64,000 nt of DNA from Ruditapes philippinarum (Eukaryota): assembly GCF_026571515.1 (NCBI RefSeq), contig NW_026866843.1, positions 1-64,000 of the forward strand. Direction: 5' to 3'. A program made the translations under genes and the position numbers. Of the stretch, positions 13,901-19,600 are shown piece after piece. A model generated the notes under the pieces. It searched no databases. It had not been told where the DNA came from and saw nothing but the letters and a program-made list of their open reading frames with translations. Each line of letters opens with the position of its first letter. Position 1 is the first letter of the stretch.

Positions 13901-15886
13901 TTTTAGAGAAACCAACTTTCAGGAAAGAATAAGCTGACACCTGGACGAGTACAACAGCCCTCCCTATTCTTCAAACAGTCCAGCAAAAAATGGAAATGAA
14001 CATATAAATACATATTTGTTTTAACTATAGTTCAGTGTAAGATTGGAATATATTTCACCAAGTGAGCACCAAAAGGTATATTTCATGAGTGTTAAGCAGC
14101 CAGAAGTGAAATATGAACTTTTGGTGTTCACAAGGTAAAAAATATTTTGATCTTACACTAAACAAATTTTCTTTTTATTATATGCAACGTGAAACGTTTT
14201 AAAAAGACATTAAACCTAATACTGAATGTTTGTTTGTTTGTTTGTTTCATTTTTTGCCTTTTTCCAACAGTATTTCAGTCATATAGGCGGGTAGTTTCCT
14301 AACCATCGTTCCTGGAGAGTTACACCAGTACTAGACTACCTTCCTCCGCGCTAAACTACCAAAGCATCTCCCGGGGATCGAACCCACGCCAGAGAGTAAT
14401 ACTGAATGAAAAGTGAACCAAATAATAATACAATTTGATGCCACTTGTCATTAAGCTGGACACTGGTATTTCACTTCAGAGACAATGTAACGGGCTAAAA
14501 TTCAAAACAGTGAAATTATCAAATTGATAATTTCACTGTTTAAAACAGTGAAATTATCAGTTTTATATCACTGATATATTTCTATAAACCACCGAAAAGC
14601 ATGTAATAAAAAGATATAAAAAATAATACCTGGTCAGCATATTTTGATCCTGAAGCCTCCAAATAACCATCTGACCTCTCGTTATATTCACTGTGTGACC
14701 AGTAGGAATGATCAAATGCAAATCTCTTTGGTTCACTATTCAGGTCCTCGGGATTCTTAATTTCTGTGGAGTTGCCATTCATGGCAATGATGAGGGTAGC
14801 ATTTCTTGCAGTCTCGCGTGAATTGTGCACAGGGGTTAAGGAAAATTTAAGATATAATTTTGTTTAAAAATTTTTTTAAGCTTGATTGTAAAGAAAGCTT
14901 ATTTAAATTTATAGCTAATTTGAACCATTGTTGAGTCCTGGCTACCTTACAGTACTCAGGTTACGAATGAAACTAGATAATGATCCAGTATAGATGATGC
15001 CCGATTTGAGAGGCAGACGCATTAACTGCTACTCTTGGTAATAACAAACTTTTAATAAACAACATTATTTAAATCAACATAATCAACTCTCAGGGTGATA
15101 ACTCTGATTAAATAATGCAACTGAACACATGGTACATTGTATCATCATAATTGACTGTGACAGGACCAACACTCCAATAAAGCTACTCAGGACAGAAGCA
15201 AAGACATATAAAGATAAAAATGATTCAAACAATTGCATTTAAAGGACATGCATTCTTATTTATCACCAGCATGTATTTATAAAACTGGAACTAGAACACG
15301 CCCGGCAAACTGTCGCTCCACTTCAAAATTGTGGTGTACGGTAAAACGAGCGAACGGCATTTCCGAGATAGAGCGGAAGGCCGATTTAAACGCCTAATTG
15401 TAAGTAGTGTTTATGTTTTTGTCTTGTTATTCATTTAAGTTGTATTTTTTCGAAAAAAACGGAAAATGTGGTTCCGTGTAGGATTAATTTAGGCTTCCAA
15501 TTATCTTAGCTGTTACAAAAAGGAAATTATATTAAGCCCCGGGAGAACTTTTCTCCCTGACGAAGCGAGCGATGATTTGTAGAATATTAAACTTCCCAAC
15601 CATAAAAATGCCATACCTTTCGGATTTCTTGAAAAAGTGTATTAGTAAATTATCAACCCGTAATAAGAACTTGTCCTTCGTGCAAAATAAATTACTCCTG
15701 AAGGATTTCTTAAATTTGTAAACCGATATTTTTCGAAAGTAGTAGAGCGAAAGGGCGAGAGATGGAGCAAAAGGTTCGATGCTGAGCGCAAGGCGATATT
15801 AATTTGACGTATTAGGAGGAGCGTAGTCTATGATTTTTTACATATAAAAGCTATAGAAAGTAAAATAGACGTGATCAAGTGTTCAG

Positions 15887-15919
<33 letters not shown>

Positions 15920-18900: not shown

Positions 18901-19600
18901 GAGTAGTCCAACTAATTGTACTGCGCGACGAGATATTGTGCTATTTTCGTGTCTGGGCAATATCTCGCCTCTACAAAGCGAGATTCTGCCCCAGAACGAA
19001 AATATCTCAGAATCAAGCTTTGGCACGTCAATATATTTTGACTAGATTCTGAGATACTTTCGTTCTGGGGCAGAATCTTGCTTTAGAGGCGAGATATTGC
19101 CCAGACACGAAAATAGCACAATATCTCGTCGCGCAGTACAATTAGTTGGACTAGCACCTGTATGGGCGAGATTCTGCCCCAGAACGAAAATATCTCAGAA
19201 TCAAGCTTTGGCACGTCAATATATTTTGACTACTGTATGGGCTTGTAATGCCAACAAAAAGTTCTACCAATATGTAAGTCACATACGGTTTGCCTACACA
19301 CACAATAAACTCCAGTCATATGGCACTTTTTCAATTATTAATATATGCAATGATGAAGTTAGTAAAATTCCATTCAGAAAGAATGAACATATATTTTTTT
19401 GGTAAATAATTTTTCCTTCAGAGAGACATTAACATATTTTTTTTGCAGTAAAACTATTTGCAATGACATTAAAATCATACCTTGCTTTCAAAAAAGACTA
19501 AAAACAAATGCATTGACGTTATTTAGAATTTTTCTTTGAAGTAAAAGGATATAAATGGTCGCACACGAACTGCAACTTTCACGTTTTCAGCCGCCGCCAT
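849..19600 (-). CDS. KIF28: Kinesin-3 family motor protein (KIF28/KLP-6-like), 5' part; coding exons 19553-19600, 14630-14824, 8620-8820 (corrupted), ~8046-8165, 7323-7434, 6417-6524, 5894-6027, 5598-5668, 1410-1472, 849-1011; gene continues left of the window
   Basis: Hand-spliced translation gives [20 protein letters not shown]...[10 protein letters not shown]...[12 protein letters not shown]...[18 protein letters not shown]...[42 protein letters not shown]...[49 protein letters not shown]...[16 protein letters not shown]. Splice phases are consistent. Kinesin-3 is secure; the KIF28 subfamily call rests on recalled neck sequence and is less certain. Confidence 0.9.
1410..1472 (-). CDS. KIF28: Kinesin exon 9 ([20 protein letters not shown]), with two 1-bp insertions
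   Basis: 63 nt versus 61 expected; an extra T and an extra A in short homopolymers. Confidence 0.85.
1861..5231 (-). mobile_element. 5'-truncated L1/Tx1-clade LINE (ORF2: end of endonuclease, RT, C-terminus) in kinesin intron 8
   Basis: Frameshifted ORF pieces [53 protein letters not shown]; 39-nt poly(A) at 1861-1899; TSD atcgttccatttc at 1848-1860 and 5232-5244. Confidence 0.92.
5598..5668 (-). CDS. KIF28: Kinesin exon 8 ([24 protein letters not shown])
   Basis: AG/GTGAG boundaries, phase 1/0. Confidence 0.92.
5894..6027 (-). CDS. KIF28: Kinesin exon 7 ([36 protein letters not shown])
   Basis: AG/GTAAGT boundaries, phase 2/1. Confidence 0.92.
6290..6402. repeat. Short degenerate tandem repeat (aaaccttgaaccagtctgacaggaag-like, about 3 copies)
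   Basis: Repeated motif visible next to the exon 6 donor. Confidence 0.55.
6417..6524 (-). CDS. KIF28: Kinesin exon 6 (RAHTI...NLVDLAG)
   Basis: AG/GT boundaries, phase 2/2. Confidence 0.92.
7323..7434 (-). CDS. KIF28: Kinesin exon 5 (switch [13 protein letters not shown])
   Basis: AG/GT boundaries, phase 1/2, open frame. Confidence 0.92.
8046..8165 (-). CDS. KIF28: Kinesin exon 4 ([12 protein letters not shown]...[12 protein letters not shown])
   Basis: Clear motif and G|GTATG donor; acceptor lies in the error-rich zone, so the right boundary is approximate. Confidence 0.85.
8150..11750. other. Low-quality, homopolymer-inflated assembly segment
   Basis: Abrupt excess of A/T/C/G runs; exon 3 and a MITE copy (~9065-9255) are scrambled while neighbouring exons are clean. 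Confidence 0.8.
8620..8820 (-). CDS. KIF28: Kinesin exon 3 (P-loop exon), heavily corrupted as assembled
   Basis: ttttcag| acceptor and AAG|GTATA donor; remnants QKV...KGF...[22 protein letters not shown] is scrambled. Confidence 0.7.
13690..13990 (+). mobile_element. Helentron-associated non-autonomous element (HINE-like) fragment
   Basis: aagggc-ataact-type internal unit and a 3' end cagccctccctattcttcaaacagtccagcaaaaaa resembling bivalve HINE ends. Confidence 0.45.
14020..14600. repeat. Palindromic interspersed repeat interrupted by a SINE
   Basis: Imperfect hairpin ttcagtgtaagat...atcttacactaaa (14031-14162) and gtgaaattatc...gataatttcac motifs, also seen near 42660-42720. Confidence 0.5.
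14229..14396 (-). mobile_element. 5'-truncated tRNA-derived SINE with (CAAA)n tail
   Basis: B box GGTTCGATCCC; 12-bp TSD taatactgaatg at 14217-14228 and 14397-14408; same 3' part at 32757-32842. Confidence 0.8.
14630..14824 (-). CDS. KIF28: Kinesin exon 2 (NSRETARNA...[10 protein letters not shown]...YADQ)
   Basis: 195 nt, phase 0/0, ends CAG|GTATT. Confidence 0.92.
15297..17524. mobile_element. Non-autonomous foldback DNA transposon, ~870-bp TIRs, CAC...GTG ends, 5-bp TSD (Transib/RAG-like signature)
   Basis: Arms 15297-~16175 and ~16655-17524 are reverse complements; TSD TAGAA at 15292-15296 and 17525-17529. Confidence 0.88.
18865..19232. mobile_element. Cluster of three copies of a ~140-bp TAGTC...GACTA MITE (one nested in inverted orientation, one truncated)
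   Basis: Outer copy 18865-19153, TSD gcacctgtat; inner copy 18904-19044, TSD gattctgag; partial copy 19168-19232, TSD ctgtatgggc. Confidence 0.85.
19553..19600 (-). CDS. KIF28: Kinesin exon 1 ([16 protein letters not shown])
   Basis: ATG at 19600; VKVAVRVRP motif; followed by the U12 donor ATATCCTTT. Confidence 0.92.

Follow-up and report, generated by a model that had tools for sequence, protein, structure and literature searches.

Evidence for a U12-type AT-AC intron at the start of the motor domain in the clam kinesin gene KIF28P

Introduction

Canonical U12-type AT-AC introns of animals begin with the donor ATATCCTTT, carry the branch site TTCCTTAAC at 11 to 13 nt from the intron end, and close with an AC acceptor that is not preceded by a pyrimidine tract. 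They typically occur as the lone minor intron among major ones, and their positions are deeply conserved, with rare switches from AT-AC to GT-AG (MIDB, PMC6717393; PMC3584512). PMC3584512 also gives 11 to 13 nt from the 3' end as the optimum for the branch site of U12 introns and counts the missing pyrimidine tract among the traits by which the class is recognized. Minor introns are also known from genes of microtubule motors and cilia, i.e., KIF6, KIFAP3, IFT80 and IFT88 (supplements of PMC6717393 and PMC9992838). Among the human genes that carry a minor intron, there is an enrichment of cilium genes (PMC9992838), and a relative richness in minor introns is described for molluscs (PMC10639083). 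Among kinesins of the KIF28/KLP-6 type, KLP-6 is a ciliary motor, and in humans KIF28P counts as a pseudogene (PMC12646758 and PMC9314371). In the human and mouse supplements of MIDB, the Kif genes listed are Kif6 and Kifap3 only, and kif28 is absent (PMC6717393).

Here, we describe an intron in KIF28P of the clam Ruditapes philippinarum that lies in a 64,000-nt stretch of contig NW_026866843.1 (the window, positions 1 to 64,000 of the forward strand). A U12-type AT-AC intron in a kinesin-3 gene had been predicted at this place from the letters of the DNA, and the signals, the junction and the orthologues analysed here strongly support that prediction for a gene of the KIF28/KLP-6 subfamily. 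The clam intron shares with the canonical introns the donor, the branch site and its distance, the AC acceptor without a pyrimidine tract, the solitary position among major introns, the deep positional conservation and the rare switches to GT-AG. It is mildly unusual in being in phase 0, a less common phase among minor introns generally (∼22% on average). KIF6, KIFAP3, IFT80 and IFT88 likewise have a minor intron in a motor or cilium gene; however, they belong to other gene families, have the intron at other positions and are kept in the human and mouse lists, unlike the human pseudogene KIF28P.

Results

On the minus strand of the window, a U12-type AT-AC intron of 4,728 nt in phase 0 runs from 19552 to 14825 (Table 1). 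Its 5' splice site, ATATCCTTTT at 19552, matches the U12 consensus [A/G]TATCCTTT. Its branch site, TTTTCCTTAAC at 14845-14835, matches the consensus TTCCTTRAY expected ∼11 to 13 nt from the 3' end. The termini are AT and AC, and there is no pyrimidine tract between TTTTCCTTAAC and the AC. The donor, branch site, terminal AC and missing pyrimidine tract of the original prediction are, therefore, all present at 19552-14825. Neither 9-mer is special by itself, because the chance expectation over 128 kb (both strands) is ∼1.8 donors and ∼0.8 branch sites, with 3 and 2 observed, respectively. What chance does not account for is their placement: both motifs coincide exactly with the two ends of the gap in the protein match, and orthologues have them at the same points again. 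A second ATATCCTTT at 16895 was considered and rejected as meaningful; it sits within a transposon arm, and the count is within chance. An Rfam scan of the 64-kb window gave 0 matches.

Table 1. Positions of the KIF28P intron, its signals, the neighboring exons and the inserted elements in the window
Feature	Position	Strand	Details
KIF28P coding exon 1, 16 codons, with RxRP motif and first motor strand	19553..19600	-	Equals P0001 residues 1-16
U12 5' splice site ATATCCTTTT	19543..19552	-	Sequence read; core donor motif ATATCCTTT
In-frame TAA, met after 9 codons upon intron retention	19523..19525	-	Frame read
Candidate cryptic U2-type donor AAG/GTATGA, 72 nt within the intron, downstream of the stop	19475..19480	-	Sequence only
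MITE-like element, high copy	18865..19232	.	Ends TAGT...ACTA; internal copies, nested; target-site duplication of 6 nt, CTGTAT
Non-coding DNA-transposon-like element, high copy	15296..17525	.	Inverted arms of ∼880 nt, 91% alike
U12 branch site TTTTCCTTAAC	14835..14845	-	Two A residues, at 13 nt and 12 nt before the intron's 3' end
Terminal AC acceptor	14825..14826	-	Last 2 of the 10 nt 3' of the branch site
Second coding exon, 65 codons, NSRE...YADQ, then GT donor	14630..14824	-	P0001 match
Further KIF28P exons	∼8823-8674, 8157-8045, 7435-7323, 6526-6417	-	tblastn of P0001
Further KIF28P exons	∼6029-5893, 5670-5598, 1471-1427, 1021-872	-	tblastn of P0001

The junction is defined by protein comparison. 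The coding part of the first exon (48 nt from the coding start at 19600) ends in phase 0 on the residues VRVRPF and aligns with the start of Caenorhabditis elegans KLP-6 (PDB 7wrg). Exon 2 has 100% identity over 65 aa with P0001, the NCBI entry "kinesin-like protein KIF28P [Ruditapes philippinarum]". Removal of the intron yields the junction in the N terminus of this 978-residue protein. The same junction is found in P0009 (Mercenaria KIF28P) and in P0002, which comes from a related clam and is encoded by a 978-aa frame on a Logan contig of 3,784 nt; because this frame is unbroken, the contig is probably a spliced transcript. By contrast, none of the 31 in-frame pairs of a GT or GC donor with an AG acceptor near both intron ends restores the frame: 22 of them lead to a stop, and the remaining 9 delete residues of RPFNSRE. 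Thus, the prediction that removal restores VRVRPF/NSRE in frame, with no GT-AG alternative, agrees with the P0001 junction, which is present in 81 of 114 homologues. This junction rests on the protein match and not on the reads of this analysis. The intron had been called the first of the gene; it is the first coding intron, and a 5' UTR intron may precede it.

Several lines of evidence place the host gene in the KIF28/KLP-6 subfamily. P0001 matches C. elegans KLP-6 (PDB 7wrg) over residues 3-863 with an E value of 3e-259, compared to 1e-117 for KIF1A, and contains kinesin, FHA and KIF1B domains. It has the N-terminal motor and FHA domain of a kinesin-3, KLP-6 is its nearest solved kinesin, and it groups with named KIF28P proteins. 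Clam KIF28P is taken as the orthologue of KLP-6. The further exons span 872..8823 on the minus strand, and the gene continues beyond the window. Four middle exons are 93-100% identical to P0001 in the tblastn comparison; exon 3 in the window reaches only 45% identity and contains a stop as well as frameshifts, another exon was not found, and two others have 80-88% identity. The damage is limited to homopolymer-rich blocks in which the depth of the DNA run X16 is low or none, and this coincidence indicates an unpolished assembly.

To compare the intron among orthologues, we scanned metagenome contigs for a U12 donor that comes after the pattern AVRVRP(F/Y), i.e., with selection on the donor side and none on the acceptor side. 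Because the donor was required, the scan counts kept introns, losses are outside its reach, and vertebrates are outside the sample. The scan gave 82 loci, which form ∼21 groups at 80% peptide identity. AT donors were present at 76 and GT donors at 6 of them, and ATATCCT, for which the pattern selects, at 75. Exon 2 was found in 51 of the 82 loci, with 40 distinct 3' ends and introns of 84-3,163 nt (median 563 nt); the 31 loci without exon 2 are mostly short contigs, and 3 resemble chance matches.

In all 51 loci with exon 2, the intron lies at the same codon, with AT-AC ends in 48, AT-AT in 1 and GT-AG in 2. Three of the AT-AC calls (L018, L049 and L074) were obtained by searching for a branch site together with AC or AG and, because these signals were required, are not independent support; AT-AA ends at these loci were rejected, as a further intron splits exon 2 there. 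With exon 2 placed by protein alignment alone (48 loci), the intron ends in AC in 45 loci, in AT in 1 and in AG in 2, both with GT donors. The two GT-AG loci retain TATCCT and the branch motif. A loose branch motif occurs in the last 25 nt of all 51 introns and a strict one in 27 of the 51; at interior control positions (n = 13,451), the frequencies are 6% for AC, 9.3% for the loose motif and 0.28% for the strict motif. Position and class are, therefore, conserved among the 51 loci with exon 2, on a donor side that was selected. The check that had been proposed, a comparison of intron position and type in KIF28/klp-6 orthologues, favors the prediction, with coral and Daphnia among the loci. 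Several copepod-like short frames cross the junction unbroken, a hint of clean loss that concerns protein frames only.

Two of the loci could be assigned closely. L003 is a stony coral gene, identical to Oculina P0064 in 122 of 127 residues, and L051 is a Daphnia gene with 97% identity to Daphnia pulex KIF28P; both have the intron. We also built a tree of 45 proteins in a quick version, with a midpoint root and without an outgroup, in which Daphnia forms a long branch. In this tree, group a (SH-aLRT 100) unites the clam gene described here with coral, sponge and nematode proteins and one of the Trichoplax copies, and a second set, group b, contains further copies from Ruditapes, Nematostella, Trichoplax and deuterostomes. 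The same intron is present in three group-b-like loci: L034, with 76% identity to the second Ruditapes KIF28P; L047, with 80-84% identity to a set of unnamed proteins placed alongside Nematostella b; and L051. Because coral, Daphnia, group-a and group-b loci share the intron, the sequence comparison indicates that it is ancestral to the KIF28/KLP-6 subfamily and predates the cnidarian-bilaterian split, and we infer that it is also older than the duplication into two deep KIF28 paralogue groups.

Short first exons are often missed by gene finders regardless of the class of the intron. AT-AC introns in particular had been said to be often mis-annotated. In a set of 114 homologues (motor-bearing proteins of >600 residues), the junction is present in 81, and a proper N terminus is absent from 33. 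In 23 of these 33 models, the Met start lies in exon 2, in 5 a foreign N terminus is joined to exon 2, and the last 5 have a break of another kind at this point. In four of the five models with a foreign N terminus (Capitella, Nematostella, Trichoplax and Magallana), a His directly precedes exon 2. His is the codon given by the AC end when read in frame, and the intron end in the clam window reads likewise. Broken models account for 1 of 19 proteins found in Logan/JGI only and for 32 of 95 others (Fisher p = 0.012, with proteins sorted by the source column). Thus, the claim of frequent mis-annotation is borne out for KIF28, in that 33 of the 114 models are broken at the position of the intron, the only junction compared.

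The intron was also proposed to have absorbed several transposons and yet to have kept perfect signals. Two clear elements with target-site duplications lie within it and together make up 55% of its length; beyond these, there is at most one more low-copy repeat near 18071-18109, and the "several" is to this extent reduced. The larger element has the ends CACG...CGTG and a 5-nt target-site duplication, TAGAA; its one long frame contains no Pfam domain, and no transposase was found in it. It may be a non-autonomous element of the Transib/RAG-like type, which is marked by CAC termini with a 5-nt target-site duplication together with a matching transposase or a signal-like motif at the ends. The long frame of the MITE-like element also contains no Pfam domain. 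In X16, the summed contig depth at the larger element is 86,000-170,000 compared to ∼120 at unique places, and it is very high at the MITE-like element too. The splice signals are indeed kept, but this is not remarkable: between the splice sites and the nearest element ends there are 320 nt on the donor side and 470 nt on the acceptor side, so that survival of the signals is expected, and among orthologues the lengths vary while the ends are the same. The length of the intron is the result of ordinary transposon insertion into an unconstrained interior.

Positions 6410-20000 were compared with three raw runs of RNA and, in addition, a contig set, all with the same species label, and nearly all of the reads came from repeats. 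Among the 15 listed of 168 joints, there is no splice of this gene, minor or major, and exon reads are sparse. The depth in exon 2 is 4-8 reads in X21 and 0 in X23 and X24 at the listed exon-2 places, and the exon bins are at background. X21 has 4 reads at 14833 and 6 at 14798, which may be unspliced RNA or DNA carry-over. Among the differences listed for X16 and X21, the one nearest to the acceptor is at 14833, between the branch site and the AC.

Discussion

We consider it highly probable (∼95%) that clam KIF28P contains a genuine minor-spliceosome AT-AC intron that is ancestral to the KIF28/KLP-6 subfamily and renders the transcript non-productive if unspliced. [quoted passage not shown] The AC 12-13 nt downstream of the branch A would then be used as the acceptor, and removal by U11/U12/U4atac/U6atac would join codon 16 to codon 17, thereby completing the start of the motor domain. 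Unspliced RNA would be non-productive because retention gives a stop 9 codons in. The intron would persist mainly because the major-class alternatives nearby all either run into a stop or cost the protein its RP motif; escape would, therefore, require exact conversion or clean loss. For the most part, the ends have remained AT-AC, with rare switches to GT-AG. Such entrenchment explains the conservation without a regulatory gate.

The original prediction included the idea that slow minor splicing after codon 16 could rate-limit the motor. In a fuller form of such a regulatory role, this splicing would set the amount of KIF28, retained transcripts would be destroyed, and the ciliary motor would, like other cilium genes, be tied to the activity of the minor spliceosome. 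The early stop upon retention, the loss of the RP motif in all major-class escapes and the position and AT-AC ends kept in coral, Daphnia and clam agree with such a bottleneck. Moreover, human U12 introns are ∼2-fold more retained on average (PMC4066798), human U12 genes are enriched for cilium genes (PMC9992838), and KLP-6 is a ciliary motor (PMC12646758). We nevertheless regard this role as unlikely. The conservation is equally explained by hard escape, and the copepod-like frames that are unbroken across the junction hint at clean loss. Nematodes of the C. elegans group are not known to have a minor spliceosome, and nematode KLP-6 functions in this lineage; for the same reason, studies of KLP-6 could not have met the intron. 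A pan-eukaryotic survey argues that the evolution of minor introns can in large part be put down to neutral processes (PMC10639083), and a rate limit on this motor by slow splicing would be an extrapolation from human cells. Similarly doubtful is the broader idea that KIF28/KLP-6 is an overlooked and very old minor-intron family, possibly pre-animal, in which the intron, placed just after RxRP at a point without a viable major-class escape, acts as an on/off gate that couples a ciliary motor to minor-spliceosome activity in invertebrates. KIF28 would have escaped the lists from model organisms, given that the gene is a pseudogene in humans and that minor splicing is lacking in nematodes.

Two further readings, which concern the intron itself, appear far less probable still. 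An intron with AT-AC ends could be removed by the major (U2) spliceosome, and a divergent AT-AC subclass of this kind exists, going by the title of a reference cited in PMC3584512. The clam intron, however, has a full U12 donor, a consensus branch site at 12-13 nt and no pyrimidine tract, and orthologues hold both motifs, which even the two GT-AG versions retain as TATCCT and branch motif; removal by the U2 machinery is, therefore, very improbable. It is equally improbable that the junction is wrong, with exon 1 not joined to 14824, or that the gene is a dead pseudogene with broken downstream exons. The low identity, stop and frameshifts of exon 3, the exon not found and the two exons at 80-88% would fit a pseudogene, and no read joining 19553 to 14824 is among the 15 listed of 168 joints, in sparse reads. 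By contrast, exons 1 and 2 and the four middle exons match an intact 978-aa NCBI protein at 93-100%, and the confinement of the damage to homopolymer-rich blocks with low or no X16 depth points to an unpolished assembly.

In the literature searched, no paper links KIF28 to minor or U12 introns. The sole kinesin mentioned there together with U12-type AT-AC introns is kinesin-2 in IFT, and kif28 is absent from the supplements of PMC6717393, PMC10639083, PMC11347168 and PMC9992838, which come without the full per-species intron tables. The online intronIC, MIDB and IAOD catalogues, which include Mercenaria and other molluscs, may list the orthologous intron automatically. The clam KIF28P intron is a real and ancient member of the known U12 class that has apparently gone unremarked.

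These findings leave the knowledge of minor splicing itself unchanged, and the richness of molluscs in minor introns was already known. In practical terms, roughly 30% of the public KIF28 models (33 of the 114 compared) have a missing or garbled first motor strand, and these are repaired by the correct junction. With this intron, the set of minor-intron genes also gains an ancient host, consistent with the enrichment of cilium genes in this set. Moreover, KIF28 offers one site at which AT-AC, AT-AT, GT-AG and probably lost states occur across paralogues, and at which subtype switching of minor introns can be studied.

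Orthologous introns

Among metagenome loci carrying the orthologous intron, both terminal dinucleotides and branch site vary. L056 and L067 have a U12 intron of the GT-AG subtype at the same codon, the donors of L013 and L023 are likewise switched, and L038 has AT-AT ends at the same codon together with a perfect branch site. L056, L067 and L038 are subtype switches at one shared codon. The branch motif CCTTAAC is replaced by CCTTAGC in L001, L002, L008, L014, L022, L030, L045, L076 and related loci; these loci retain AT-AC ends and represent one lineage with many near-related members.

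In ENA/NCBI contigs, the homologous frames P0135, P0145, P0151-P0153, P0191 and P0212 run unbroken across the exon 1/exon 2 junction. They are copepod-, ostracod- and ctenophore-like; one of them spans 984 residues and lies in a contig of 46.8 kb. These frames point to a possible clean intron loss.

Features of the minor intron and the window

Features in the window; presumed identities are named from sequence motifs
Feature	Position	Strand	Remarks
LINE reverse-transcriptase fragments (presumed)	2461-4586		within the kinesin gene
Foldback-like high-copy element	15296-17525		CAC...GTG ends; 5-nt target-site duplication
Good U2-type donor	19480	-	72 nt into the minor intron, beyond an in-frame stop
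Exon with C2H2 zinc-finger (presumed)	24410-25273
Lysine-methyltransferase-like gene exons (presumed)	31176-32492
LTR retroelement, Ty3/Gypsy type	49767-54460		pol frame of 1,232 codons

The ends and target-site duplication of the foldback-like element form a combination known from Transib/RAG-like transposons; a Pfam search of its one long frame detected no transposase. Transib/RAG-like transposons reportedly occur in protostomes (PMC7204232). The element is plentiful in RNA run X21 and scarcely present in X23 and X24. Both arms contain ATATCCTTT, at 16895 (-) and 15945 (+), in numbers not beyond chance, and the copy at 16895 is a sense-strand U12-donor-like decoy within the U12 intron. The U2-type donor is a candidate for non-productive alternative splicing.

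Assembly around the downstream exons

The assembly looks unpolished at 8200-11800 and about 870-1500, where long homopolymer runs occur. KIF28P exon 3 (8823-8674) has a stop, frameshifts and only 45% identity to the 978-aa NCBI protein P0001, exons 1471-1427 and 1021-872 have 80-88%, and tblastn of P0001 on the window gave no match for the exon coding residues 133-155; exons neighbouring the damaged ones are 100% identical. DNA run X16 has zero depth at 8680-9133. Such garbled KIF28P exons are a trap when calling pseudogenes.
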